A stretch of DNA of 64,000 nucleotides from Stegostoma tigrinum (GCF_030684315.1 NC_081362.1:96641187-96705186); one strand, 5' to 3'; counted from the first letter of the stretch, positions 8,853-64,000 are shown. The notes: generated from the sequence alone by a model not told the origin. Made by a program: numbers and translations.

Positions 8853-9197
8853 GATGTAAATGTCCTCATCCTTCTCCAATCTCCGATCCTGGCAAGTGAG
8901 ACCAAGGGTCAAACTGCGCAGTTACAGTTCATCGTGAAGAACGCTGCAGTGGCACACACCAATGTTTAGTGGTACCAGATGGAAAAATGGACTAACTTGC
9001 TTGGGTTTTAACAAGTGGCTTGAGGAACATCACACAATTGAGCCCAGGAATCACTGAGCGATTGCATTTTTCCAGAAATTCCTCCAGTAACAATTTCATT
9101 CTGACCATCAAAAAAGTGCAGCCCCGTGAGAGTGAGGGCTATTACTGCTCAGCCCAGGGAAGTATCAGTGATGGAGGAAGCTGGCTCATTGTAAACA
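8853..9197 (+). pseudogene. Degenerate V exon, paralogue of V1/V2
   Basis: VNVLILLQSP...TAQLQF(Cys lost)IVKNAAVAHTNV*WYQ / frameshift / ...SPGITERLHFSRNSSSNNFILTIKKVQPRESEGYYCSAQGSISDGGSWLIVN. Splice sites are weakened; the downstream flank resembles the V1 intron. Confidence 0.85.
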
Positions 9198-13234: not shown

Positions 13235-13560
13235 GTGCAAATTCTCTCATCCTTCTCCAGTTTCTGAGCCTGGAATGTATCACTGTCGGGCATACGGCCC
13301 TGTTACAATGCACCATGAGCAACACTGCAGTAACACACATCACTGTTAAAAGGGCTCAACAAAACTGGAAAGTCATATTGTGTAAGTTTTAACACGTGGC
13401 AAAAATGGCTAAATAATGGAGCTCAGGATTCACGAAGTAATTCCAGCCTTCCACAGACCCTGCCAGTAATAGCTTCATTCTGACCATCACAAACATGCAG
13501 CCCAGTGGCACCGGGGTCTATTATTGCTCTATGGGAGAGAAAGCGTACTCAAAGTCACCA
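13235..13560 (+). pseudogene. Degenerate V exon, paralogue of V1/V2
   Basis: Acceptor cttttccccaaaag|GT. ANSLILLQFLSLECITVGHTALLQCTMSNTAVTH... stops/indels ...FQPSTDPASNSFILTITNMQPSGTGVYYCS, with a deletion in CDR3/J and donor ACCA|GTAATG. Confidence 0.88.
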
Positions 13561-21027: not shown

Positions 21028-21327
21028 CAGTCTTTATGCCTCGAATAGGTGACTGAAAATCACATTGCTCAGTTGCAGTGCACCATGAGGAATGTAACAG
21101 TGACACAAAACACCTTTAAATCGTACCAACAAAACCAGGGTTCCATAAGGTGAGAATTTTAACAACGGAGCCCAAGATTCACTCAGTAAATCTATGCTTC
21201 CAGAGGACCCCTCCACTAACAGCTTCATTCTGACAATCACAAATGTGCAGCCCAGTGACAATGGGGTCTATTATAGCTCAGAGTGAAGAAGGATCTACAG
21301 GATAGGAAGCAAGCTCATTGTAAACAA
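21028..21327 (+). pseudogene. Degenerate V exon, paralogue of V1/V2
   Basis: ...VTENHIAQLQCTMRNVTVT... NSFILTITNVQPSDNGVYYS(Cys lost)SE*RRIYRIGSKLIVN. Several stops; donor lost. Confidence 0.85.
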
Positions 21328-45109: not shown

Positions 45110-46250
45110 AGAACATCCTCATAAATCCCCTTTGCACACTTTCCAGTTTAACTGTGTCTTTCCTGTAACAGGGTGATCAAAACTGCATACAATTCTCCAA
45201 ATGACGAATACAACTGTAACATAATGTCCCAACTCCTATACTCAGTTCCTCGATGGATGAAGGCAGCATGCTAAATGCATTCTTCACCACCCTGCTAACT
45301 GTGATGCCATTTTCAATGAACAATGTACTTGTACTCCTCGGTCCCTCTGTTCCACAGCACTCCTCAGGAACTGACCACTTACTGTAGAAGTCCTACCTTG
45401 GTTTGGCTTTCCTAAATGCAATGCCTCACACTTAGCTGTATTGAGTTGTATTTGTCAATCCTCAGCCCCCTTCTCCAACTGACCAAGGCCTCTCTGTAAT
45501 GTTTAATAACCTTCTTTGCTATCAACTATACCTCCTAATTTTGTATCATCTGCAAACTTACTAACCATGCCTTGTGCATTCACATCCAGATCATTTCTCT
45601 AAATAACAAATAACAAAGGTCCAAGCACCGACCCCTGTAGCACACCACTAGTCACAGGCCTCCAATTCAAGAGACAACCTTCAACCATCAACCTCTGCTT
45701 CCGACAATAGACCCAATTTTGAATCCAGTTTGCTAGATCTCCCTGGATCCCATGTAACCTAACTTTCATGACCAGCCTGCCATGTGTGACCTTGTCGAAG
45801 GCCTTACCAAAGTCCATATAGATAACATCCACTGCCCTCTCTTCTCCTTTAGTGACTGGTTTGCAAGAACTCCCCAGGTCGCATTGCACCACCCCCTTCT
45901 CCAATCTATCACTCTTCAGATTATAATCTGCCTTCGTGTTTTTGTAGCAAAGCGGATAACCTCACATTTATCCACATTATCCTGCATTTGCCATGCATTT
46001 CCCTACTCAATCAACCTGTCCAATTCACATTGAAGCATCTCTGCATCCTCCTCACAGCTCACCTTCCCATACAGCTTTGAGTCATCTGCAAACTCAGAAT
46101 ATTACATTCAGTTCCATCACCTAAATCATTAGTTGATATTGTAAATAGCTCGGGTCCTAGCACTGATCCCTACAGTTTCTGACTAGTCACTGGCTGCCTT
46201 TCAGAAAAAGACCTCATTCATTTCTACACTTCGTTTCCTGCCTGTTCAGA
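45110..46250 (-). mobile_element. Decayed CR1 RT fragments
   Basis: AVDVIYMDFGKAFDKV..GVLQGSVLGPLLF. Confidence 0.85.
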
Positions 46251-46554
46251 TGTTCTCTATCCAAATCTGTAAACAACATTCACTTCATCCTGGTCAAGCT
46301 CAGCTCTGTCCGTTGGCCCAGTGCTGGCTTTTGACTGAGGAATTCCTAAGACCAGGCCCAGTGCTTACGAAGGAAAGGTTGATATTCCAAATCAGGTTGG
46401 GCTGGGCCTGGAGGAAGCTCGGAATTCAAGCAGTTCCCACAATGACCCTGTTGTTGATCTGCACAATGCTAGAGGTAGCAGCAGAGGTCAGTGTGATCCA
46501 AATAATCTCAGTCAGAGTCTGCACCTTCCACTCCCATGCTGAGCTGCACACTGT

Positions 46555-47365
46555 CTGAGTGGGTCTGAGTGCCCAGTAATCTCAGGGTCTGGGAGGGTCT
46601 GAGTGCCCAGTAATCTCAGGGTCTGAATACTCAGTAATCTCAGGGTCTGGGAGGATCTGAGTGCCCAGTAACCTTAGGGTCTGGGAGGGTCTGAGTGCCC
46701 AGTAACCTTAGGGTCTGGGAGGGTCTGAGTGCCCAGTAACCTCAGGGTCTGGGAGGGTCTGAGTGCCCAGTAATCTCAGGGTCTGGGAGGATCTGCGTGC
46801 CCAGTAATCTCAGGGTCAGGGAGGGTCTGAATACTCAGTAATCTCAGGGTCTGGGAGGATCTGAGTGCCCAGTAATCTCAGGGTCTGGGAGGATCTGAGT
46901 GCTCAGTAATTTCAGGGTCTGGGAGGATCTGAGTGCCCAGTAACCTCAGGATCTGGGAGGGTCTAAGTGTCCAGTAACCTCAGGGCCTGGGAGGGTCTGA
47001 GTGCCCAGAGATCTCAGGATCTGGGAGGGTCTGAGTGCCCAGTGATCTCAGGGTCTGGGAGGATCTGAGTGCCCAGTAATCTCAGGGTCTGGGAGGGTCT
47101 GAGTGCCCAGTAATTTCAGGGTCTGGGAGGGTCTGAGTGCCCAGTAATCTCAGGGTCTGGGAGGGTCTGAGTGCCCAGTGATCACAGGGTCTGGGAGGGT
47201 CTGAGTGCCCAGTAATCTCAGGGTCTGGGAGGGTCTGAGTGCCCAGTAATCTCAGGGTCTGGGAGGGCCTGAGTACTCAGTAATCTCAGGGTCTGGGAGG
47301 GTCTCAGTGTCCAGTAATCTCAGGGTCTGGGAGGGTCTGAGTACTCAGTAATCTCAGGGTCTGGG
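46555..47365 (+). repeat. 34-bp minisatellite, about 24 copies
   Basis: Unit CTGAGTGCCCAGTAATCTCAGGGTCTGGGAGGGT repeated head to tail with point variants; begins about 140 bp beyond the receptor stop codon. Confidence 0.95.
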
Positions 47366-47501
47366 AATATATGGACATGGGACAGTTGTTGGTGAGGAAG
47401 CCTGAATCTGGGTGAATGCAAAGAAGAAGCCGAGATGGTTCTGTTCAAGTGAGTTGCTGTTGACTGCTCTTTGCTGCAGACTGAAAGGGTCTTGTCGAAC
47501 T

Positions 47502-47624
47502 TCAGTTTCTTGCCCATTTTACAACTGCGTACTCTGAGTTACTTTCAGCAGCTGTCACTGTCGGCCGGCTGACTCCTTGTGGGTGAAAGTGAACCTCAGC
47601 ATAATGACATTCTCCTTCAGCCAG
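47502..47624 (-). CDS. Terminal cytoplasmic exon with two ITIM-like motifs
   Basis: Acceptor ttcttttcgattccag|CTG, phase 0. Encodes LAEGECHYAEVHFHPQGVSRPTVTAAESNSEYAVVKWARN*, with motifs CHYAEV and SEYAVV spaced like tandem ITIM/ITSM. Confidence 0.8.
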   Translation of the reverse strand: MAEGECHYAEVHFHPQGVSRPTVTAAESNSEYAVVKWARN

Positions 47625-48398
47625 CTGGAATCGAAAAGAAATATCACTCATTATTTTTCTCAGGAACACCGCAAGTTGCTCATTTGGGCACAGCAAGATC
47701 CCAGCAGAAGCACTGAGCAGATGCTCCATTCTGATGATTGTTGGGGAAGAGACACACATCACTCAGAGAGTTCAGTAGAATCACTCAGCTCTCTGCCAAA
47801 GCAATGTCCTGGGATGTGCTACATCCATCCAAGGCAGCAGAGAGGATCAGGATTTCATTCTTCATCCAAAAGAGTGGCAGATTTTACAGAGCAGCACACT
47901 CTCATTACTGCACTGGACATTCAGCCCAAACTCTGCTCAAATCTACGCAGGGAGGCTTGAATTACCATTCATCTGATTGAGCAGCAAGAGAGCCGTTACT
48001 GAATCCTGCCTGATTTCGAAGGATGCCTTAATCATGATCCACCAGGGAAAAGCTGCAACTCTGGCTCATTCTCCCTTCTTCATGTTGGGTGCTGAGGTCA
48101 ATGAAGCCAAGCTCCCCTCCCCGCCAGCTGCAGACAGCTCATTTGGAGCAAAGCAGAGATTGAAACTTCCTGACCCAGGGCATGTTGTGGCTTTCAGCTC
48201 CTCACAAACACCAGAAAGGAATTGCTTGGATACTGAGGGAATGAAGAACTTTGGGGATAGTGAAGGAAGGGGCTGAGATTAAACTGCAGCCATATTGCCT
48301 TCGTCAGGAGCAGGCTGTGGTTCATTCTCCCTTCTTAATCTGAGGATCCCCTGAACTTGAACAAATCATTAGGAAGAACTAGACCCTAGGGCATTCTA

Positions 48399-48602
48399 AG
48401 ATAATAAAATGTGAGGCTGGATGAACACAGCAGGCCAAGCAGCATCTCAGGAGCACAAAAGCTGACGTTTCGGGCCTAGACCCTTCATCAGAGGCCCGAA
48501 ACGTCAGCTTTTGTGCTCCTGAGATGCTGCTTGGCCTGCTGTGTTCATCCAGCCTCACATTTTATTATCTTGGAATTCTCCAGCATCTGCAGTTCCCATT
48601 AT
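48399..48602. mobile_element. Short fold-back Penelope terminal element with 15-bp target-site duplication
   Basis: About 80-bp near-perfect inverted arms; CCCTAGGGCATTCTA at 48384-48398 and 48603-48617. Confidence 0.85.
48461..48493 (-). ncRNA. Minimal type I hammerhead ribozyme motif, Penelope-associated
   Basis: Minus strand reads cu-CUGAUGA-aGGGucuaggCCC-GAAAC-GUC-ag: intact core, short helix II, and a palindromic ACGU helix III. Confidence 0.7.
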
Positions 48603-49149
48603 CCCTAGGGCATTCTATCTGTGATCACAATCCCACAAAGTGTTGGAGCATTTCCCAGGCACTAGAAGTTTAGGGACATTTCTGTCCATGCAACTTGTTG
48701 CAAGATTCAAAAGAAGGAAATGATTAATTTCTCTTTGATTATTTTCGTTCAGAGCCTGCTGTGGAACAGAAACTCTCTGTTTGTTACAATTTAGGCTTTG
48801 TAATTATTGTGCTGATACTGAAGTTCCTCCCGGATGTGGCTCTTGTTTCTCAAAGCCCTGGTGTTAAAAATGCAGCAAAAACCCACAGCGATGCCCCATT
48901 TGCTTACCACAACAGCAGGAACTGTTGCTTGCTCACTGCTCTGTGTTCGATCTGAAAGAAAATACAATGATAACTCTTCAGAATGGGACCAAGTCACAAT
49001 TGAGCTCTTTAAACTGAGCGGGAAATGCCAGAAGTCACTTTGGGGGAGAGAGAGATAATAAAGTGTGAGGCTGGATGAACACAGCAGACAAGCAGAATCT
49101 TAGGAGCACAAACCTGACGTTTCTGGCCTAGACCCTTCATCAGCTCTCT

Positions 49150-50228
49150 TATTGGATCAGAAATTGGCTTGCTGAAAAAAGACAGAGGGTGGTAGTTGAT
49201 GGGAAATGTTCATTCTGGAGACCAGTTACTAGTGGTGTACCGCAAGGGTCGGTGTTGGGTCCACTGCTGTTTGTCATTTTTATAAATGACCTCGATGTGG
49301 GCGTAGAAGGATGGGTTAGTAAATTTGCAGATGACACCAAGGTTGGTGGAGGTGTGGATAGTGAAGAAGAATGTTGGAGGTTACAGAGAGACATAGATAA
49401 GCTGCAGAGCTGGGCTGAGAGGTGGCAAATGGAGTTTAATGCAGACAAGTGTGAGGTGATGCACTTTGGTAGGAGTAACCGGAAGGCAAAGTACAGGGCT
49501 AATGGTAAGATGCTTGGTAGTGTAGATGAGCAGAGAGATCTCGGTGTCCACGTACACAGATCCTTGAAAGTTGCTACCCAGGTTGACAGGGTTATTAAGA
49601 AGGCATACAGTGTTTTAGCTTTTATTAATAGAGGGATCGAGTTCCGGAACCAAGAGGTTATGGTGAAGCTGTACAAAACTCTGGTGTGGCCGCACTTGAA
49701 GTATTGTGTACAGTTCTGGTCACCGCATTATAAGAAGGATGTGGAAGCTTTGGAAAGGGTGCAAAGGAGATTTACTAGGATGTCGCCTGGTATGGAGGGA
49801 AGGACTTAGAGGAGAGGCTGAGGGACTTGAGGCTGTTTTCATTAGAGAGAAGAAGGTTGAGAGGTGACTTAATTGAGATATATAAAATAATCAGAGGGTT
49901 AGATAGGGTGGATAGGGAGGGCCTTTTTCCTAGGATGGTGACGGCGAGCATGAGGGGGCATATGTTTAAATTGAGGGGTGAAACATACAGGACAGTTGTC
50001 AGAGGTAGTTTCTTTACTCAGAGTGTAGTAAGGGAATGGAACGCTTTGCCTGCAACGGTAGTAGATTCGCCAACTTTCGGTACATTTAAGTGGTCATTGG
50101 ACAAGCATATGGACGTACATGGAATAGTGTAGGTTAGATGGGCTTCATATTGGTATGACAGGTCAGCACAACATCGAAGGCCGAAGGGTCTGTACTGTGC
50201 TGTAATGTTCTATGTTCTATGTTCTATG
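49150..50228 (+). mobile_element. CR1-clade LINE, 5'-truncated, one stop
   Basis: RT ORFs 49189-49809 and 49827-50132, closely similar to the 35467 copy; (GTTCTAT)n tail. Confidence 0.95.
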
Positions 50229-50578
50229 AGTTTCTTTCCCACCAGGAATTTTCAGTGGAGAGGAATCCAGCCACCACAGCAGCAATGTTTGTGAAATTTT
50301 CCGAGCAAGGCAAATTTGAGACAGGAATCTTCAGGTTGTTCAAATTGAGAAAAAGCTGAGCCATTAGAACAGTGATAGCTTCATGAAACTGGATTCAGAG
50401 AAAAGCCGTGGAATTGTTTTGACCATTCAAAACAAAGAAATGAGCAGGAGACAGGTCATCGGAAAAATAAAAGATTTAGAGTGGAGTATAATTTCTGTCG
50501 ACTTTTGTCTCTGTGATGGAGAGTGATGGGAATGTAGTTTAAATATTGTTTTAATGAGTGTGTTAATGTTCTTCTCAC

Positions 50579-50696
50579 TGTAATAAATATGTATACACAG
50601 CATGTTTTGTTTTGCTTTCTCTCTATTGTATTGTATACGTAAGTTCCATTGTTAAAGAACATCTGCAGTCTCCTGTGAATAATCTCCTGTGAATAT
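50579..50696 (-). CDS. Probable first cytoplasmic exon
   Basis: Acceptor atttgtattcacag|A, donor ACA|GTGAGA, 118 nt. Phase 2 to 0 exactly bridges the TM exon and the terminal exon. Encodes (R)YSQEIIHRRLQMFFNNGTYVYNTIERKQNKTCCVYIFIT. Confidence 0.55.
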
Positions 50697-51158
50697 CTGT
50701 GAATACAAATTGTGTTAATCAGACAAATGGCATGCTGTAACAATTAGCATATTGATTACAACATGAATCTAACAGGCTTAAATGGACACTTAGAACAGAG
50801 AGTAACTTCTGCCAAATATTGTAATAATGATTGAATTAAGTTGCCTACCATTTACTGTTGCATACACAGCATCCTGATCTTCAACAGGCCTCCTAAATAA
50901 ATGCCACACATTAGACATTTTACACATTTACCACACAACAACAATACTGTAGTTTTTCACACTTTCGGTGCTCATGGATTTTACAACTTTCACCACGATC
51001 TTTTGAGCCCAGCTCAAAGACGAAAAGAATGATTGTCTGGATTCAAGTCCCAGCTGCCCCAGAGGGTGCGCCACAACAGGTCGACTTAAAAATAACAGTG
51101 AACCCAATCATTTCCCAGCAACTTGTCCACAACAGAACAAGCTGAACAGTGAGGGGCA

Positions 51159-51402
51159 TAGAATCCTGACAGAATGGAAAGGAGCCCTTTGGCCCAACAA
51201 GTCCACACCGACCCTCAGAGTATCCCACCCCCAGACACTACAGGCAAGCCACCTAGCCTGCACACCTTTGGACTGTGGGAGGAAACCTATGCAGACACAG
51301 GGAGAACATGCAAGGTCCACACAGACAGTTGCCAAAGGATGGAATCAAATCCAGGTCTCTGGCGCTGTGAGCCAGCAGTGCGAACCACTGAGCCACTGTG
51401 CC
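51159..51402 (-). mobile_element. HE1-like SINE
   Basis: Reverse complement of the same consensus. Confidence 0.85.
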
Positions 51403-53055
51403 TTGATTAAGAGTAATGAAGGGTTAACCATCTGTCTTTCAGAAAGAGATCTGACTTTAACTTCTGAATTACATAAGTTTCAAACTGTATTAATCTGTAA
51501 ACCTCTCATGTTTTAACATCAAGAAACCAATTAGTTAGAAAAGTATTTACAGGTTGAATCATTTTTATCTGTCTTATCCCACAGATTCAGAAAGGATGTC
51601 CCAGCAGGGATCACTGGAAGAAAGGGGCTTGTTTTTGGGACAAGGAGAAATCACGAGTCTCTGGTTCCCAATCGAGACCCCGTTCTGCAGTTCATATTAG
51701 GAGCTGATGATTTGAGAACTTCACTCTTTCCATCCCAACTCAATAAACACAGCATGTGCACTGGACTGCAGAGGTTCAAGAAGGTAGCTCACCGGCAGCA
51801 TCTCCAGGGAAACTAGGGATAGATAATAATTGCTGGGCCCAGCCACTGATGCCCATATCCCACACACAACATGAAACTAACTCACGTTTGGAGACAGAAG
51901 ACAGATTGATATGGGTGTCACAAGAACACAGAGCTCATGGTGAATCAGAAACATTTCAATTCTGTTTGAGTGTCTCTCTAGTAAAACGGTACTGCATCCT
52001 GTGCTGGAGGGTCATGGAGAATAGTAGCTAGACTCAGCTGGATATGGGGTTCCGGTGGGCTCCCTATGCTCAGACAATGCTTCAACTTCTCGTTGGATTT
52101 ACACTCACTGCTAGATTCAAACAATCTTCACAAAGTCAAAGGTAACAATTACAGCATCAGGAGGAAGCAATAGTCTTTATCTTTTGAATGTTAGTTAAGA
52201 TATTCTGGGCCTATGAGTCCTTTGCTCAGAATGAACATTCCATCATCTCTCCAGACACTGAGAGGGCTCTCCTCTTCAAGGTTACGTCGCTGTGAAGACT
52301 GAAGGAGGCAACTGCACATGTGCAGTGCGGACAGCTGTTTTTGTTCCTGCTTATTAAAAGCTATGATTTAACAGAGACAGTTCAAAGAAGGCTCACTGGG
52401 GTGGTCTCTGGTGCAGAGCGATTGTCTTTTGAGCAAAGGCTAAACAAGTTGGGACTCTACTCCCAGGAGTTTAGAAGAATGAGTTGTGATCTCATTGCAA
52501 CAAACAGGATTCTTAAGGGGCTTTGACAGGGCAAACTGGGAGAGGATCATGGGAGAGTCTGGGGTTAGAGGCCATCGTCACAGGAAAAAAGGAATGTGAT
52601 TTAAGTCTGAAATGAGGAGGAATTTCTTCTCTTTTAGAATTGTGAGCTGTAGGAACTCCTTGCCACAGAGAGCTATGGGACAGAGCCCTTCAGATTGAAA
52701 GGCAAATGTCAACAGGTTCTTGGTCAATTGGGAAATCGAGGGCTACAGAGGAAGGCAGGAAAGTGGACGTGAGGAATGTTGAATCAGTCATGAGCATATT
52801 GAATTGCAAAGAAGACTTGAGGGGCCGAATGGCCAACTCCTGTCACTGTTTCTCCTGTGTCATAGTCACCAGCTCAGTGGGATGCTTCCTGGGAGAAGCA
52901 AACACAGAAACAAGTAAAAACTTCAGACTGTCTTTGTGTCTTTGTAAGTAGCCAGTTTGCAGGACTATGATCAATGGATTCAAAACCCTTTCAAGGGCCA
53001 ATGAACAAGATGAAACAGGCTATTGAGGTGGTGAAGAATGAGGGATCATGGATAC

Positions 53056-54197
53056 ATTTGATAAGGTTCCCCATGGTAGGCTCATTCAGAAGGTCAGGAG
53101 GAATGGGATACAGGGGAACTTAGCTGCTTGGATACAGAATTGGCTGGCCAACAGAAGACAGCGAGTGGTAGTAGAAGGAAAATATTCTGCCTGGAAGTCA
53201 GTGGTGAGTGGAGTTCCACAGGGCTCTGTCCTTGGGCCTCTACTGTTTGTAATTTTTATTAATGACTTGGACGAGGGAATTGAAGGATGGGTCAGCAAGT
53301 TTGCAGACGACACAAAGGTCGGAGGTGTCGTTGACAGTGTAGAGGGCTGTTGTAGGCTGCAGCGGGACATTGACAGGATGCAGAGATGGGCTGAGAGGTG
53401 GCAGATGGAGTTCAACCTGGATAAATGCGAGGTGATGCATTTTGGAAGGTCGAATTTGAAAGCTGAGTACAGGATTAAGGATAGGATTCTTGGCAGCGTG
53501 GAGGAACAGAGGGATCTTGGTGTGCAGATACATAGATCCCTTAAAATGGCCACCCAAGTGGACAGGGTTGTTAAGAAAGCATATGGTGTTTTGGCTTTCA
53601 TTAACAGGGGGATTGAGTTTAAGAGTCGTGAGATCTTGTTGCAGCTCTATAAAACTTTGGTTAGACCGCACTTGGAATACTGCGTCCAGTTCTGGGCGCC
53701 CTATTATAGGAAAGATGTGGATGCTTTGGAGAGGGTTCAGAGGAGGTTTACCAGGATGCTGCCTGGACTGGAGGGCTTATCTTATGAAGAGAGGTTGACT
53801 GAGCTCGGTCTCTTTTCATTGGAGAAAAGGAGGAGGAGAGGGGACCTAATTGAGGTATACAAGATAATGAGAGGCATAGATAGAGTTGATAGCCAGAGAC
53901 TATTTCCCAGGGCAGAAATGGCTAGCACGAGGGGTCATAGTTTTAAGCTGGTTGGTGGAAAGTATAGAGGGGATGTCAGAGGCAGGTTCTTTATGCAGAG
54001 AGTTGTGAGAGCATGGAATGCGTTGCCAGCAGCAGTTGTGGAAGCAAGGTCATTGGGGTCATTTAAGAGACTGCTGGACATGTATATGGTCACAGAAATT
54101 TGAGGGTGCATACATGAGGATCAATGGTCGGCACAACATTGTGGGCTGAAGGGCCTGTTCTGTGCTGTACTGTTCTATGTTCTATGTTCTATGTTCT
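53056..54197 (+). mobile_element. CR1-clade LINE, young, intronic and antisense to the receptor gene
   Basis: 351-aa RT ORF almost identical to the 37146-38715 copy; (GTTCTAT)n tail. Confidence 0.95.
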
Positions 54198-54929
54198 AAA
54201 ACACAACAAAAAAGATCAAGTCCATAAGTTCCAGAAATCACTTCACCCAGAGGATGGGGAGGCTCTGTGAGCCATGACAGATTAATGGCAGGTGGAGAAT
54301 CAATGTCAACATTCAGGATTCCATTGGAGAGGATTGTGAAGAGTCAGGAAACAGGGCAGGGAAATGTGAGATAACAAGGTGTAGAGCTGGATGAACACAG
54401 CAGTTCAAGCAGCATCAGAGGAGCAGGAAAGCTGACGTTTCCTGACTGGACCATTCTTCAGAAATGGAGTATCAACAGTTCCTATTATTAGGGAAATGTG
54501 ATTTGCGTTTTCTGTTGATGTGGAAGTAAAACGCCAGGACAGTCAGTGGCCTGGTACTCACATGGTCTACCCAGCAGGAGATGCTGCGCAGCCAGTGAAC
54601 CATCAGCACTGAGGCGGAACCTAACACTAGGCTTGGTGGGTAATGACCCGATACGACCTGGGGATCCTGCTGGTGATGTCTAATGCTTGGTCCATTCAAA
54701 GATTTCTTACTGTCAACAGTAGGTGCCTGTGGCCTGGCGCTGGAGGGTGTGTGTTACCAGAAATGGAGCAAATTGGAAGTGATTGGGCATCTGGACGTGT
54801 GGGATGGTCTCAACAGTCACTGATCCCCCAATCTCAATGGTTCTGTAAGCTGCAGTGGGAATATCAGCACTTACTGAAAACAATAACTGTGCAGTGACAG
54901 AATCAAACCCAAGATGAACTGAGATTTAC

Positions 54930-55080
54930 CGTTGAGTGGAGTCCTTTACTGATAAACACAGCTTTTGTTTATGAAGGAAGACTGTGAGCAGGACAATGCA
55001 GATCAAGACAGTGAAGCTCAGAATGGTGCCAATGATTAAACTGGGATCTGAAATCCAGGGAACGCCATGGGAAGATTTTT
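54930..55080 (-). CDS. Stalk/transmembrane exon
   Basis: Acceptor tattttacag|AA, donor CAACG|GTAAAT, phase 1 to 2. Encodes EKSSHGVPWISDPS-LIIGTILSFTVLICIVLLTVFL-HKQKLCLSVKDSTQR: a 22-aa uncharged helix followed by basic stop-transfer residues, in frame with V3. Confidence 0.88.
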
Positions 55081-55619
55081 CTGTAAAATATCAGAATGTT
55101 ACACACTCATTTGCTTCAGTCACTAATGATAACATTAATTTTGAGACCCTGAGGGTCATAAATCCCCTCCTCACTCCCCAAAGCCTATTGACTGTTCAGA
55201 AGGTACAAGTCAGGAGTGGGATGGAATATTCCCCACTTGCCTGGTTAGTGCTGCTCCAGCAACACTCTAGAAGATTGATACAATCCAGGAAAATGTAGCG
55301 CAGGTGATTGGCACCGTGGCCACAAGCATCCAATCACTCCACCACTGACACTCTACTTTGTATTAACTACAAGATACGCTGCTGAAATTCAGCAAAGTTC
55401 CTCAGATAGCACCTCACAAACCCTCATTCTCCTCCATTCTGAAGGACAAGTGCTGCAGCTACAAGGGACCCCACTGGCTACAACCTCCCCTCCACGCCTC
55501 TCCCCATCCTGCCTTAGGAATACCTGGCCTCGATGACCGTTCTGCCCTTCCACTAATGTAGCACAGCAGCTGTGTGCTCCCTTCCCTGTTCACACCAGCG
55601 TTCCCTCCCATTGCCTTAC

Positions 55620-55967
55620 CAGTTACATTGAGCTGGCTCCCTGCTCCATCGATGTAGCTCCACACACTGCAGCGGAACACAGCACTATCATTGAGAGTCA
55701 CATTCACAAGGCGCAGAATGTAACTGTTCCTGCTGGCATTCCTGGAAACATGAACACGATCATGGAAACCCTGGGCCTTGGTGAAGGTGCCATTCACAAA
55801 CTGGCTTATCACCCACTCCCTGTTGCTGCCAGGTCGCTGGTAATGCCAGTGAACATCAGTGTCATTCACACTGGCATTGTACATGTCACACTGGAACTCG
55901 ACAGTTTCACCCTCTGGTACCTTGCTGGCCACTGGATACTGAATGAGGACTGGATCAGCCAATGGAT
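55620..55967 (-). CDS. Ig V-set (joined VJ) domain exon V3, membrane-proximal
   Basis: Acceptor aatgaacag|AT, donor ACTG|GTAAG, 348 nt, phase 1/1, open. Encodes PLADPVLIQYPVASKVPEGETVEFQCDMYNASVNDTDVHWHYQRPG...DSAVFRCSVWSYIDGAGSQLNVT. Confidence 0.92.
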
Positions 55968-57497
55968 CTGTTCATTTCAAAGAGGAAAAATAGGTTAACT
56001 TGAATTGTAACATTTTATAAAATCTCCTTCAGGTTAGCTGATGATTTGTAGAAGATCATATGAAGCTTCCTGTGTGGTTATTAATGTTTGTGATTTGAGA
56101 GGAAATGATTTGAACAATATCCATCAGCTGAATGCTTTCCAATTTGATGCTTTGATTCATTCTGAGCAGGATCCTGTAACAGAATAAACTATCGAGAAGG
56201 TAATTTCACAATGTTCACAACTGAGTAATTGGAAGAGATTGAGCAGCCATCTGAAAAGTTTCATTCTCATCGAAAACCAGAAGGAAAAGGTTGAAAGTTT
56301 CAAACAGCTTTTGATGCCCCTGACTACGCCCTCTCTGATTCACTTTTGCTACATCTTATTCTGTATTCTCACAAGTGCAAGGCTGTGGGGAGAAAGCAGG
56401 ATACTGGCAGTTGGGAATGATGACCATGTGAAGAGTCAGTGCAGACAAGATGGGTTGAACTGCCTCCTTCTACACGTGCCTGGATGGGCACAGCTCCAAC
56501 AGCATTCAAAAAGTACCACGTCATCCAGGACTAAGCATCCCCCTTGGCTGCTACCACACCTAACGCATTCAACATTCAAAACCGAAGCACAATGTGTACC
56601 ATCGACAAGATGCCCTTCAGTAACTCATCAAGGCTCCTCCAAAAGTACCTTCTGAACACACAGACTCTCGTCTCTGAAAGGACAAAGAGAGGAAAGACAT
56701 GCGACACCACCTCCTTCAGGTTCCACTACAAGGCACTCACCGTCTGAACATGGAAAAATATCATCATCGTTCCTTCAGCATTACTGGATCAAATGTCCCA
56801 ACCCCAAGAGGACCATAACTGCTCATGAAGGCACACACCATCACCTTCTCAAAACATAGAAACAGGAGCAGGCCATGCAGCCTGCATCATCATTCAATAT
56901 ATTTATTGAATCCCTGAACTAGAAACAGGTCATTCAGCCCAACACATCTATGCTGGTTCTCTGAAGAACATTCCACCAAGGCTTATACTACCCTCTCCCT
57001 GCAATTCCCATGGTTAATCCACCAAGTCTACACATCCATGGAAACTATATACAATTTAGCATGGCCAATCCAACTTGCATGCTCATCTTTGGAGTGTGGA
57101 AGGAAATCCATGCAGATACAAGGAGAATGTGCAAACTCCACACAGACAGTCACCCAAGGATGGATTTGAACCCAGGTCTCTGGTACGAGGAGGTAGCCAT
57201 TCTAAACATTGAGTCACAGTGCCACTGACCATCCAACTCTGTCCCCAGTCCCCCATGTCTCACCAAACCCTTTCACCCCTTTTCACCCTCAGAACTAAAT
57301 CTAACTCTTTCTTGAAAACATATAATGTTTTAGCATCATCTGATTCTTGTGGCACAGCATTCCACAGACTCCCCACTCTCTGGGTGAACACATTTCTTTG
57401 CAAGGGCCATTTGAGATGAACAACAATTGCGGGCCCGGCCAGGGGTTGCCACGTCCCAAGAGTGAGTAGAACCACACCAGATAGAGACTGGAGAATG

Positions 57498-57604
57498 TTA
57501 AATACAACACTGAGAACAAAAGAGATGGAGAAGTAAAAAGACTGAGAGAAGAGAAAAAAATTGAGATTGAGGAACTATCCAAGAGGAGAAACCATTTATT
57601 CTAC
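57498..57604 (-). CDS. Candidate alternative terminal exon with a hydrophobic, GPI-signal-like tail
   Basis: Strong acceptor ctcttgttttacttacag|GT after a 151-nt intron from the V2 donor. In frame it gives GRINGFSSWIVPQSQFFSLLSVFLLLHLFCSQCCI*. Confidence 0.45.
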
Positions 57605-57755
57605 CTGTAAGTAAAACAAGAGAAGGAAACTGTTTTATGTTTACATCGAGCTCTCTGCTTTCTCTCTACCAGAGAAATTTAACACATTTTCCTGTCCAAC
57701 AAATCCATGTGGAAGCGGTTGTTTTGTCAGATTATTAAAGATAAACATGTCTTAC

Positions 57756-58097
57756 CCATTACAGTCAGTTGGGTTCCATTCCCACTGATATCTCCCCACA
57801 CTTTACAGTAATAGACCCCACTGTCAATGGGCAGCACGTTTCTGATGGTCAGAATGAAGCTGTTATTGTTGGAGACTCTGGAAGACTGGAATCGCTCCAT
57901 GAATTGTGGACTCCGTGTGATGTTCCTCACGTCATGTGTTAAAATCCACTCCGTGCTTTTCCTTGGTTGGTCCCGGTGCCAGTGAACATCAGTATGTGTC
58001 ACTGCGGCGTTCCTCATGGTACACTGTAACCGGGCAGTGTGACCCTCGGTGACACGTTCCAGGCTTGGTGACTGGAGAAGGACTGGGGCATTTACAC
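57756..58097 (-). CDS. Ig V-set (joined VJ) domain exon V2
   Basis: Acceptor ctttctcttaaag|GT, donor ATGG|GTAAG, 342 nt, phase 1/1, open. Encodes VNAPVLLQSPSLERVTEGHTARLQCTMRNAAVTHTDVHWHRDQP...DSGVYYCKVWGDISGNGTQLTVM. Confidence 0.93.
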
Positions 58098-59789
58098 CTT
58101 TAAGAGAAAGATGTTGAATGAATCAATTCTGAGGAAGGTGACTGGGCCTGAAACATTAACTCTAATTTCTCTCCACAGATACTGCCAGATCTGCTGAGTT
58201 TTTCCAGCAATTTCTGTTTTTGTTTCTGATACCCAGCATCCGCAGTCCTTTTGGACTTGATGAATAAATTTACACCAGTTTCTCAATCCCATTCTCCTGT
58301 GTTTTGCCTGAAATCCTTACCCATCGAGCTCAACCATCACTTTCAAATACACTCACTAAATTGGACTCCGCAGGTTTCTGCAGCAACGTCTTCCACAGAT
58401 TCACCTCCCTGAAACTGATCAAATTCCTCCTCATCTCAGTTCCAAATGGTCATGCCTTCACTCCAAGGCTGTGCCCACAGGTCCTAGTCTCCTATTAGTG
58501 GAAACATCCTCTCCATGACCACTCAATCAAGGCCACTCAGTACTCGGTCCGTTTCAATCAGATTCCCCGTCATCCTTCTAAACTCCATCAAGTACAGAGC
58601 CAGAGGCATCAATCACTCCTCATGTGACAGCCCTTCATCTCCGGGATCCTTAATATTAACCTACTTTGAAACCCCAACCCCCACCACAACACCAGCACGT
58701 CCAGCCTTTGAGTCAATTTGTAGAAATAAAGGGCTGGACAATCAGTGAAAAAATAGTTTTAGTCAATTCAGAACATGTGAGGTTCTGAGAATTCAGTCTC
58801 AAAAGGAAAGCCATTTCCTTCAGCTTCAAATCAAGCAGGTAAAGCAATGAAGATTTAGAGAGACTATCAAAAAGTCAATCACTGATGCTGCCAGATGGTC
58901 CTCTTTGATTTTCTGCAGGATTAATGGAGGGAAAATATTCATTGGAGATATTAACAGAGATTGAAAATGGGATTTCTGGCTGTGTTGCGACGACATAACA
59001 GTTTCACAGAGTTGGAGTCATCAAACAAGGAATCTCTGAAATATTGATTTGGATTGGAATGACTGTGGTCAGAAAAAATTTTCAAAAATGCAACAGAAAA
59101 GAATGAAGGTGCAGATAACATGTCTGGTATTTTCAGAAAATCTTTTTAAACAGAAATGCAATGAATGGATGCGGAATCGAGAGAGTTTTAACAAAAAGCC
59201 TCCTCAGAAATGGAATCAGATTCAATCCCTGAGTGTTATTGCTTGAAATATAAAGTGCTAATGAGGAAATAGAATCTGCCCGAAGTACCAGGCCATGAGG
59301 AATGGACAGTGGTCCATCGGTTGGTCACTCTGTCAGGCAATTAGAATGAAATTTTGCAAATTAGCTCATGAAATTCCAATGGCTCATTATTTGTGGATGA
59401 GGAATACACAGTCTAAATTTATTAAAACATTTTAATTGGTCAGCATTATAGCAAGATGTTAAATGTTTCCAGTCAAGTTGGTCCATGGCAGGATTTGGGG
59501 AATTCCCAACATCCAGTTAAAGCTTCTCCATTAATTCCGATCATAGCTTTTGAAGAGCCATTTCACACGATCTGAATAGATTGTGTCGGAGCCTGACCTA
59601 AAATCAAGAATGGTAACCAAAGGGTGTCCGCAGTGGCTCAAAAAGGCAGCTCAGCACCACCATCTCAAGGGTAGTTAAGGATGGGCAATAAATGCAAGCC
59701 CAGCCAGTGACACCTACAAACAGCTCTTCAATTCATTCATCGGGCAAGGGCTATTCGCTCGAAGTGATTGTCATGTAAACTCTACTTAC

Positions 59790-60134
59790 TGGTGATATTG
59801 AGCAGGCTTCCTCTCCCATAAATCCTTCCCCAGACTGAGCAATAATAGACCCCAGTGTCACTGGGCTGCACGTTTGTGATGGTCAGAATGAAGCTGTTAC
59901 TGGAGGGGTCTCTGGAAGGCTGGAATCGATCAGTGAATCCTGGGCTCCTTTGGATGTTGTTCTTCATTTCATGTGTTATAACGTGTTTCATGAAATGCCT
60001 TGGTTGCTCCCAATACCAATGAACATCGGTGTGTATCACTTTGGCATGTTGCATGGTGCACTGTAACCAGGCAGCGTGACCCTTGGTGACATGTTCCAGG
60101 CTCGGAGACTGGAGAAGGACTGGACCAGTGAAAC
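59790..60134 (-). CDS. Ig V-set (joined VJ) domain exon V1 of a multi-V-domain receptor gene
   Basis: Acceptor ttttgccataaag|GT, donor ACCA|GTAAGT, 345 nt, phase 1/1, open. Encodes FTGPVLLQSPSLEHVTKGHAAWLQCTMQHAKVIHTDVHWYWEQP...RFQPSRDPSSNSFILTITNVQPSDTGVYYCSVWGRIYGRGSLLNIT, with canonical Cys/Trp/DxGxYYC and a J-like YGxGS motif. Confidence 0.93.
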
Positions 60135-60404
60135 CTTTATGGCAAAAATAACAATTAGATTATTTCCACAAGAACAGATTCTCTGTGCTGCCTTATTGAA
60201 AGGGTCTGACAGGGTGGGAGGAGTTTTGAATTGAACAGAGAAAACAGGTTGCTGCACTAAACCATTGATCTGCACCTGTGACTGATTCAGATCAAACAAA
60301 ATCCATCAATGTAAAGATAAACATTTAGATAAACAATCTGTCAGATAATATTTCTCAATTTTCTTCAGAATTTCATCAAAATTTTGGACTTTCCAATATC
60401 TTCT

Positions 60405-61557
60405 GCAGCATGAGTAAGGCGAGGGCCCATGGTGTTCGAGGTGAGCTACTGGCTTGGATTGAGGATTGGCTGTCTGACAGGAGGCAGAGAGTTGGGATAA
60501 AAGGCTCTTTTTTGGAATGGCAACTGGTGACAAGTGGTGTCCTGCAGGGTTCAGTGTTGGGGCAGCAGCTGTTCACTTTATATATCAATGATCTGTATGA
60601 AGGGATTGCGGGCATTCTGGCGAAGTTTTCCAATGATATGAAGATAGGTGGACAGGCAGGTAGTGCTGAGGAGGTGGGGAAGCTGCAGAAAGATTTAGAC
60701 AGTTTAGGAGAGTCATCCAGGAAACAGCTGATGAAATTCAACGTGAGAAAATATGAGGTTTTGCACTTTCGGAAAAAAATACAGGCATGGACTATTTTCT
60801 AAACCGTGAGAAAATTTGTAAAGCAGAAGTACAAAGGGATCTGGGAGTGTTGGTCCAGGATTCTCTAAAAGTTAACTTACAGGTAGAGTCCGTGATTAAG
60901 AAAGAGAATGTAATGTTGTCGTTTATCTCAAGAGGGTTGGAATATAAAAGCAGTGATGTGCTTCTGAGACTTTATAAAGCTCTAGTTAGGCCCCATTTCA
61001 AATACTGTGTCCAATTTTGGGTCCCGCACCTCAGGAAGGACATACTGGCACTGGAGCGTGTCCAGCGGAGATTCACAAGGATGACCCCTGGAATGCCAGG
61101 TTTAATGTACGATGAGCGGCTGAGGATCCTGGGCTTCTATTCATTAGAGTTTAGAAGGTTGAGGGGAGATCTAATAGAAACGTACAAGATAATGCATGGC
61201 TTAGAAAGGGTGGACGCTGAGAAGTTGTTTCCGTAAGGCGGGGAGACTAGGACCCGTGGGCACAACCTCAGAATTAGAGGGGTTAAATTTAAAACGGAAA
61301 TGAGGAGACATTGCTTCAGCCAGAGAATGGTGGGCCTGTGGAATTCATTGCCACAGAGTGCAGTGGAGGTCGGGACGTTAAATGTCTTCAAGGCAGAGAT
61401 GGATAAATTCTTGATCTCACAACTAATCAAGGGCTATGGGGAGAGTGCGGGGAACTGGAGTTGAAATGCCCATCAGCCATGAATAAATGGCGGAGTGGAC
61501 TTGATGGGCCGAAGGGCCTTACTTCCACTATTATGTCTTATGTTCTTATGGTCTTAT
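60405..61557 (+). mobile_element. CR1-clade LINE fragment
   Basis: Frameshifted RT ORFs 60410-60802 and 60787-61236; (TCTTATG)-type tail. Confidence 0.9.
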
Positions 61558-64000
61558 AATCAAAACTCACAATCACTTCCATCTGGAAGGACAAGGGCAG
61601 TAGATACATGGGAACACACAACGGAGAAGATTCAAAACTGTGTGATGAAGCAACAGAATAACAAGTGTTAAATTTACAAATGCTACTGCAAAAGGCTGAC
61701 TTGCAGGTGAGGCTGAGACTGCGGAGATCGGTTTGTAGCAGATATGGAAGCATGTGTCAAAAACATTGTTGGCTAGTTCATGTGGTTAGGGTGTGGGGAC
61801 CAGTTGCATTAACCTCCCAGAGTAAGCCATAAGAAGACATCGCAGAATAGATTGAGAGAAGTTACTGGTAACTATTTGTGGTTTCAGAGAGGATCAAGTA
61901 AAGCATGCACAAGAAAACTGATTGAAAATGCTGTTGCAGAGATCACAACTTGCAATTTTCTAGCCTACTTATAAGAGGCAATAAAGACAGATATTTAAGA
62001 AGTCTGCGGACTTGTTCCTTATGTCTTTGGAACCCAACAACCACCTTCTGCAAATTCCCCTACAAGCCAGTCACTGTACGAACTTGGGAATACCTAACGA
62101 TTCATTCAGTGCCACTGAGTCAACTTCCTGGAATTCCCTCCCTGTGGGAGTTTTGGGTCAAACCGCAGCACATGATCTGCAGCAGATTAGGAAGAAAGCT
62201 CACTCACAGTCATCTCCACTATAATAATTATCATAAAACACTTCTGATAATGTGCCACAAATCCATCTTATTAAGTAGCTGAGAGTACTTGATCTGGGGA
62301 CTTGTATGGACAGAGGATTGGCTAATGAAAAGATGACAGACAGTTGGGATTAAGGTGGTACTTTCATGGTGGCAATTTTCAAATTAAACTGTTTATTGAG
62401 ATCCCCAACTTCCAAAAGGTCCTAAATTATCATCTGCCATTTAAAGGAACATCTGCCAGGACTTTGTCAATTGAAACAATAATGCTTTCCAAACAATATT
62501 TCTTTCTCTCAAACAGAAAACAATCCACTTTCACACTTGAAAGTGCCCTAATGATTTCAATGTTTATTTTGTTTGCTCATAAAATCTGTCCAAATGCAGA
62601 CAAATTCCCACTTGCACTCCAACAACTGTTCCTGTCAGATTCATATTTTAAAATTACATCACAACTTCAGAAATATTGACTTGTAAATCTTTGAGTCCCA
62701 TCAGAGACAGAGGCCAAAACTGACATGCCATGAATTCAGAATCCAATTTCCAAACTCAATGATATTAAAATCATACAGAAACTACATACTCACATCACAG
62801 TCTTTGGACTCAAATGGGGGGAGTCCATGGGTAATCAAACCTCAATGAACTGCAAGCCATTCTATAAGTGTAACTGAATGAACAATGTGGCCAATTTGTA
62901 TCTCTTCTGGCTTCCGATCCAAAGTAAAGAAAAAAAAATTGGTAGTTTGTTTGATGACCTCAAAAATAATTTATTATCAGTAAGACAGGTTATTGAAAAG
63001 GTGGAAAATGTGATCAGGAACTACATTTCTGTTTGGGTTAAACCATATCCATGAATCTCAAACACGTTCATTCACAGACAAGGTGCTATAGCTCTGCAGT
63101 AAGAGTTTGTGCTGTTTGTTAAAGGCCTGAAAGAAAGACCATCCCAGTGGGACAAGGAAATCACACCAGAAGGCAGAATGTGCTGACCTCTCAGAGTTCC
63201 TTCAATTTCTTGTCAATGAGGCTGATTCCTGAAAGTTATACAGTGGTGTGAGATCTTCTGACCATCATTCAGATTCTGATGGGAAATAATTTGAAATCCT
63301 GATCTTGGAAACTTTATCTTTACAAATTCTTCATGAAGAGATCTGACCAACCTTTCCCACGTATTTTACTGACTGAGATGGAGAACTTGTGCAGCTGGTC
63401 CTGATTGAAGTTTCCTTCCTTTGTTATCAGAAGGGAACATTTTTCACTGCTTTTGGTCAGCTGGACAATTCTGCTTCAGCTGCTGTGAACGCACACAGCA
63501 ACTTGGGCCGGGAAACTGTTGCCGGGCCGCATTCAAAATCAGTCAGTCCAGCAACTTAGCGATAAAACCCAGTTCTTACCTTGTGTTAACATCCTTCATC
63601 GAGTGAAAATGAATTTGAATTTTGTAAAACACAGTATATTTTGTTCTTTCAGATGCAAGTGATCGTGGGGTAAACCGTTTTCAACCAAGAAATGTCTAAA
63701 CAGTTCAATGAACCAGGTTCTCATTGTCTGCACATTTTTGTGTTGCCCTAATATGGGAATCAATTCATTTTTTTTTCGTTTTGCTACAGACTTCACAGGG
63801 TTATTCTCATGTTTTCTTATAAATTCGCTGTTTTTGTTTTCAGCTGAAGATCCTGCTCCCGGCTCTGCCTGCTCCTGCACATCCGTCAGAATTGCGCTTC
63901 GAAATGAAATTGTCTCCACTGCTCTTATTTCTCCATCCAGTCTGATTGTCCACACATTTCTCTGCATTACATCTGATCTGCTGTTGGGTGCCCACTCCTA

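Follow-up and report, generated by a model that had tools for sequence, protein, structure and literature searches.

Can an antibody light-chain gene that has been joined in the germ line leave the antibody system and supply the recognition domains of a different kind of receptor? The question is raised by three exons in a stretch of 64,000 nucleotides from Stegostoma tigrinum (NC_081362.1:96641187-96705186, hereafter called the window), and it recalls the suggestion of Lee et al. (2000) that a germline-rejoined immunoglobulin gene could become a novel receptor, a hypothesis that by their own account was without a direct example (PMC2193156). The three exons, designated V1, V2 and V3, are the second, third and fourth V domains of one intact gene, whose exons within the window are the following:

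59790..60134, minus strand: VJ exon V1, second V domain of the gene; junction C-SVWGRI-YG; identical to the NCBI model P0185
57756..58097, minus strand: VJ exon V2, third V domain; junction C-KVWGDI-SG; AlphaFold pLDDT 94.8
55620..55967, minus strand: VJ exon V3, fourth (membrane-proximal) V domain; junction C-SVWSYI-DG; 7 N-glycan sequons
54930..55080, minus strand: stalk and uncharged transmembrane exon
50849..50892, minus strand: cytoplasmic exon 1, with the tyrosine motif AVYATV
48908..48951, minus strand: cytoplasmic exon 2, a spacer
47502..47624, minus strand: last coding exon, with the motifs CHYAEV and SEYAVV and the stop codon; it ends as NCBI isoform X1 (P0185)

These seven exons form a single open frame that terminates at 47502. 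The first V exon lies about 720 bases and the leader exon about 11.7 kb past the window end, and the whole gene consists of the leader, four VJ exons, an exon for the uncharged transmembrane segment, and a tail that is encoded by three exons and bears tyrosine motifs. Its structure equals that of the NCBI model P0185, which is labelled Stegostoma tigrinum and bears an automatic name taken from an unrelated protein; the ending of isoform X1 was preferred to that of isoform X2 (P0010), a rejected alternative whose last exon, at 24755-24666, is repeat-derived. V1 to V3 are open, are bounded by AG and GT, have lengths divisible by three in phase 1-1, match the Pfam V-set family (E = 1e-15, 2e-17 and 7e-15, respectively) and each end in a J-like G-x-G-x-x-L-x-V. 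The original prediction of three V-set exons with light-chain-like frameworks is thus confirmed, and the short CDR3s are as it gave them; the framework motifs that it quoted fit V1 best, but V2 has WHRDQP and V3 has CDM, WHYQRP and FRC. Its word "triplicated" says too little of a gene that has four V exons and belongs to a multigene family which arose before sharks and rays separated, and a local triplication of the array was rejected, since domains of the V3 type cluster with those of rays and the sevengill shark (support 100/98). The four V exons splice to a transmembrane exon, whereas the light-chain layout is a single V and one C1 exon, and a pattern search detected no recombination signal sequence (RSS) in the whole 64-kb window, nor did a looser pattern in positions 46001-64000. 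We take V1 to V3 to encode three VJ domains, out of four that stand in tandem and do not rearrange, in a type I membrane receptor that is predicted to be inhibitory.

The gene is not a solitary one. The family forms a cluster of 1.7 Mb on contig C11 (96.05-97.78 Mb) with at least 57 V-exon matches, 35 of them without and 22 with stop codons, a count that is a lower bound from 150 scored candidates among 247. Protein searches recovered 111 family models, each with one to eight recognised V domains in tandem, and the family was found in 21 elasmobranch species, 13 of them sharks and eight of them rays. In the profile search, for which 7996 candidates were scored, all 120 listed matches were elasmobranch, and among the matches listed in the protein and profile searches there was no family relative outside sharks and rays, chimaeras included. 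A published description of the family was not found in the literature, a mention in Ohta 2019, in the 2023 UrIg paper (J Immunol) or in the supplements being possible. It appears to be a real elasmobranch paired-receptor family that has so far gone unnamed. The cluster is a candidate set of paired receptors for sharks and rays which seems not to have been described before and is at present concealed by unrelated automatic names.

The designation "paired" rests on the transmembrane segments and tails. In the tail of the window gene the ITIM consensus is met by SEYAVV only, AVYATV and CHYAEV being without the usual residue at position -2; its paralogues have canonical ITIM and ITSM-type motifs. 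Of the 87 family models with a transmembrane segment, 66 have one or more motifs of the ITIM/ITSM type and 35 have two or more; the segment is charged in 4. Paralogues with an arginine-containing and with a neutral transmembrane segment lie behind near-identical V exons at C11:97.67 and 97.76 Mb, and one of the 57 cluster V-exon matches belongs to the arginine type. Both halves of the paired-receptor layout are therefore present, namely ITIM/ITSM-tailed members and short-tailed members with a charged transmembrane segment. In paired receptors, the arginine-bearing members signal via an ITAM adaptor such as FcR-gamma. We regard the family as candidate paired activating and inhibitory receptors, predicted from their sequences to inhibit or to activate immune cells: the V array would recognise a surface ligand unaided by a heavy chain, phosphorylated tail tyrosines would recruit SHP-1/SHP-2 for inhibitory signalling, and the arginine-bearing members would likewise depend on such an adaptor. 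Variability among the family V domains peaks around CDR1, the C-C' loop and CDR2, and the junction keeps its W, G and I; recognition therefore likely uses the CDR1/CDR2 faces and not CDR3. An Atlas search with the transmembrane segment and tail of P0017 gave scores of just 0.80-0.83 (C1orf162, LST1 and TREM-like), which are leads at most.

The systems suitable for comparison are SIRP, CD300/TREM, skate MDIR and teleost NITR, with PD-1 for the tail. The family resembles such paired Ig-like receptors in its clustered genes, many pseudogenes, ITIM/ITSM-type tails, and short-tailed partners that have arginine in the membrane and ectodomains similar to those of the tailed members. It might accordingly be supposed that the family is an ordinary innate V receptor family of the SIRP, CD300/TREM/pIgR, MDIR, NITR or PD-1 type, and that its likeness to light chains reflects merely the general VJ fold. 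The tail layout and the arginine-bearing members are of that kind, the NCBI automatic names of some members are SIRP-like or pIgR-like, and the top Atlas feature match was "Putative immune-type receptor 7", although V-NAR and antibody clusters reached its score of 0.94 as well. We nevertheless consider that explanation very improbable. The ectodomain of the family, unlike those of the paired receptors, which it resembles in layout, consists purely of sigma-2-like VJ repeats, and the framework of V1 is 36-52% identical to that of sigma-2, compared with 34-37% for lambda, 26-27% for IgH and 23-34% for TCR. All the structural neighbours that Foldseek listed for the predicted structure of V2 are antibody-type V domains (TM about 0.9), as are the best 60 sequence matches in the antibody-rich PDB. 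On contig C11, moreover, no C1 exon was present among 150 scored candidates of 251, and there was no SEP-domain (NSFL1C-type) match.

The light chain to which the family is related can be specified. Its best non-family matches in the genome, at ~50% identity, are V genes on contig C60, where there are light-chain miniclusters, each with a C exon; in some of them V and J are separate, V having a 12-spacer RSS and J a 23-spacer RSS, and in others they are joined. The C60 V genes match the skate "type I immunoglobulin light chain" (P0098) at 65%, and type I is the NS5 or sigma-2 light chain (PMC5985310 Table 2). When 46 reference V domains were compared with the junction excluded, all of the 248 distinct family frameworks scored best against sigma-2. 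Up to the second Cys, V1 and V3 align without gaps to the sigma-2 genes L031 and L034, in agreement with the published sigma-2 lengths of 8 for CDR1 and 7 for CDR2 (PMC5985310 Table S5); V2 is one residue shorter at CDR2.

The tree of V domains that had been proposed as a check places the family beside antigen-receptor V genes, as sister to sigma-2. The trees were rooted on UrIg and rest on an alignment of only 94 columns, without sigma-2 sequences of chimaera, coelacanth, gar and turtle and without SIRP/CD300/TREM/NKp30, pIgR and CTX domains. A grouping with CD300/TREM/pIgR, SIRP or CTX-type domains, by which the prediction was to be judged wrong, is thus opposed only indirectly. The clade of family plus sigma-2 was supported at 99/96 in a 77-row tree (8 redundant rows dropped beforehand; one long teleost TCR row falls inside the family), 98/94 in a 53-row tree, 99/92 when the junction was included and 97/93 under a mixture model. 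The long-branch member L044 was dropped for the last three of these; when it was kept, in a 54-row tree preceded by the removal of 5 long-branch and 18 thinned rows, support fell to 396/1000 (40%). Just one sigma (type IV) V gene was recovered; the assembly has a frameshift in it, and its row in the trees carries X at the break. The candidate C282 was rejected as UrIg2 on the published alignment.

Capture of the exon from an always-joined lambda (type II) light chain or a TCR-gamma V gene is scarcely credible on these data. Lambda genes are indeed joined in this genome, one of them (L055) with a six-codon junction, and a grouping of the family with TCR-gamma is not formally rejected (p=0.094), but the AU test rejects a grouping with lambda (p=0.027) and 0/248 frameworks score best with either. 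The original prediction was therefore wrong in favouring the lambda isotype in place of sigma-2, and the likeness to TCR-gamma that it proposed is not favoured. The reading for which it can be credited, and which is the best supported one, is that a germline-joined light-chain VJ exon was captured into an innate-type receptor. We think it likely that the VJ exon of the family descends from a sigma-2 gene whose V and J had been joined in the germ line before the shark-ray split and was co-opted into paired receptors.

The feature that gives this history its detail is the junction. The offset from the Cys to the G-x-G motif is 8 in 277/291 family domains (the motif is missing in 12 and different in 2), and it is 8 in 3/66 sigma-2 proteins, all three representing a germline-joined gene with the junction EVWGYI, which exists alongside copies that are still split by RSS. 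That gene is also present in two more carpet-shark species, and a short-junction sigma-2 gene was seen in carpet sharks only. From the Cys codon to the splice donor there are 52 bases in both the family and the short sigma-2 gene, of which 26-34 are identical in 17 exons. The junction consensus of the family is V/I, W, G, x, I, with WGYIF or WGYIY in some members. In the split sigma-2 genes VW is encoded by V, YIF is templated by J and the tyrosine starts J, and for this reason the family joint matches a trimming of the V end. The joined NS5 gene of the nurse shark presumably has a six-codon CDR3 as well. The joined nurse-shark NS5 is reported to pair with IgM1gj (PMC5192425, PMC4279169).

The events that we envisage would have begun with the joining of V to J by RAG in a germ cell of an early cartilaginous fish. 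The joined phase 1-1 exon would then have left the light-chain locus and its C exon, come to precede transmembrane and tail exons, and been tandemly duplicated and shuffled. The elasmobranch sigma-2 sequences that were sampled together form the sister group of the family, which does not nest among them, and the capture would hence be older than the separation of sharks and rays. The balance tips slightly towards the more specific view that one RAG-made V-J joint founded the whole paired innate family and that its sister copy survives as the germline-joined sigma-2 gene. None of 1000 bootstrap trees united the family with the short-junction gene of sigma-2, but such a grouping is not rejected by the AU test (p=0.21, 0.23). 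For the junction to be shared, the framework of the light chain must therefore have been homogenised later or else a second joint have arisen by convergence, and the six-codon junction may have arisen twice.

These same trees bear on a different route, by which a sigma-2 VJ that had been joined in a lymphocyte, or independently, entered the germ line (for example by retrotransposition) and the junction is convergent. With VW templated by V and YIF by J, the part that is shared comes mainly to length and one glycine. However, the exon retains a split-leader start and a J splice donor in the light-chain position, both of which a processed mRNA would lose, and the junction length is found in so few sigma-2 proteins that we judge this route unlikely.

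A further possibility, and one which the original prediction had offered as its second branch, is that the exon was never split: the family and sigma-2 would both stem from an uninterrupted VJ exon that predates the RAG invasion, and the RSS would have been gained in the light-chain branch only. The sister position of the family would suit such a history, as would its genes without RSS or octamer and the joined sigma-2 genes of skates, coelacanth, gar and turtle (PMC5192425, PMC5985310). We hold it to be improbable, and the pre-RAG branch is disfavoured, because the nearest kin of the family in the trees is a single isotype that rearranges, and UrIg stands apart from both. With the trees rooted on UrIg, the family branches among rearranging V genes, unlike relics of the UrIg/UrIg2 type, which lie outside them, and a separate RSS insertion would be required. 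The exclusively elasmobranch matches of the profile search likewise count against a relic, as does the documentation of germline joining in sharks (PMC2193156). Moreover, family frameworks are 29-54% (median 46%) identical to the shark sigma-2 gene L034, compared with 41% for ropefish sigma-2 (39/94, counted by eye), whose junction is different. The lower ropefish value favours an origin of the family within cartilaginous fish, to the extent that rates of sequence change allow.

Kinship with sigma-2 (type I, NS5, sigma-cart) is marked by the nearest V sequence, the CDR1/CDR2 register and the split-leader exon start, and with the short sigma-2 gene of carpet sharks the family has in common the six-codon junction and the 52-base exon end. 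The family differs from sigma-2 in having no C exon, RSS or octamer, in lying on another contig behind another leader, and in its one to eight tandem V domains, transmembrane segment, tyrosine tail and decayed heavy-chain interface. The last of these is judged from the residues of the V domains: Gln38 is present in 90/291 family domains and 49/63 sigma-2 domains, and Tyr87 in 170/291 and 63/63, while a G-strand sequon occurs in 237/291 and 1/63, respectively. The leader and promoter of the family are unlike those of sigma-2, the octamer being absent in 3/3 family leaders and present in 2/3 of sigma-2. The family seems no longer to belong to the antibody system: in layout it works as a paired receptor, and it is neither a light chain nor UrIg.

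Among elasmobranch genes, UrIg and UrIg2 are likewise non-rearranging, single-exon VJ genes, but they form VJ-C1n dimers and are linked to the MHC or to antigen-receptor complexes (PMC12227049), whereas the family is without a C1 domain, has frameworks that are 20-31% identical to that of the UrIg V domain in this genome, and is on another contig. VpreB and IgM1gj are also Ig V domains freed from somatic rearrangement (PMC2193156, PMC4279169), but both stay in antibody or pre-B receptor complexes. The family is accordingly a testable candidate for the hypothesis of Lee et al.; if the proposed history is true, a new innate system took its recognition domain from adaptive immunity, and the direct example for their hypothesis would be at hand. 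It also carries a caution for the search for the RAG-invaded ancestor (PMC12227049), as a VJ exon that is uninterrupted is not necessarily a relic from before RAG.

Synteny with IgL clusters, TCR loci or MHC paralogons had been suggested as a further check. The light-chain loci are on contigs C60 (sigma-2), C34 (lambda), C10 (kappa) and C38 (sigma), the IgH/TCR locus is on C55, TCR-gamma on C5 and UrIg on C44, all labels except those of sigma-2 and UrIg having been assigned from motifs, RSS and tree position. PBX, the one MHC-paralogon marker used, is on C10, C37, C44 and C45, and neither it nor UrIg is on C11; the separation of the family from the UrIg, IgH/TCR and PBX contigs would also count against a relic. 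In 20 flanking stretches of 10 kb, 86 of 445 candidate ORFs were scanned without an informative Pfam match, and a weak torsin match (E=0.003) in the cluster flank was disregarded. A PDB search identified an ADCY8-like exon flanking the C11 cluster.

Besides the intact minus-strand gene, sequence matches and comparison recovered the following features from the window and from the contig that carries the family cluster (C11 of the Stegostoma tigrinum genome, G000):

window 5598, plus strand, family-type leader exon
window about 8999-9187, 13249-13560 and 21197-21316, plus strand, three broken or partial V exons
window 53042-54103 and 60329-61464, plus strand, LINE reverse-transcriptase fragments
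G000:C11:96145495-96156015, plus strand, near-identical inverted copy of the intact gene's second to fourth V exons together with its TM and tail
L117:8496-9998 (C11:97.45 Mb), within the cluster, long coiled-coil open frame
L114:1230-3105 (C11:97.86 Mb), beside the cluster, long coiled-coil open frame

The plus-strand leader and the three damaged V exons probably represent a decayed family gene that faces the intact one, whose inverted partial copy lies about 550 kb away and encodes an identical V2 protein. The LINE fragments occupy the introns flanking the window's V exons, one stretch on each side.

At another family locus, L009 (G000:C11:97363331), and in models P0064 and P0070, the V exon continues as an N/G/S/T-rich open frame of 1546 residues, predicted to be a long mucin-like stalk, which occurs in a skate too. 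The L117 and L114 coiled-coil frames were assigned to no Pfam family.

Among light-chain genes, the sole sigma (type IV) V found, L071 (G000:C38:36144400-36144800), is frameshifted in the assembly. L050 (G000:C282:117707-118540) is a divergent VJ-joined gene of V-C secreted type that clusters, together with skate P0131, within or at the base of sigma-2 in the V-domain tree (support 97/96); the two might be an old sigma-2 sublineage without a name. Further single-exon VJ genes were observed on the sigma-2 contig (L063, L077 and L078 at G000:C60:7.85-8.48 Mb; L079 and L080 at 3.56 and 3.68 Mb), where the C1 profile matched weakly over the five VJ exons themselves, so that their constant domains are only candidates.
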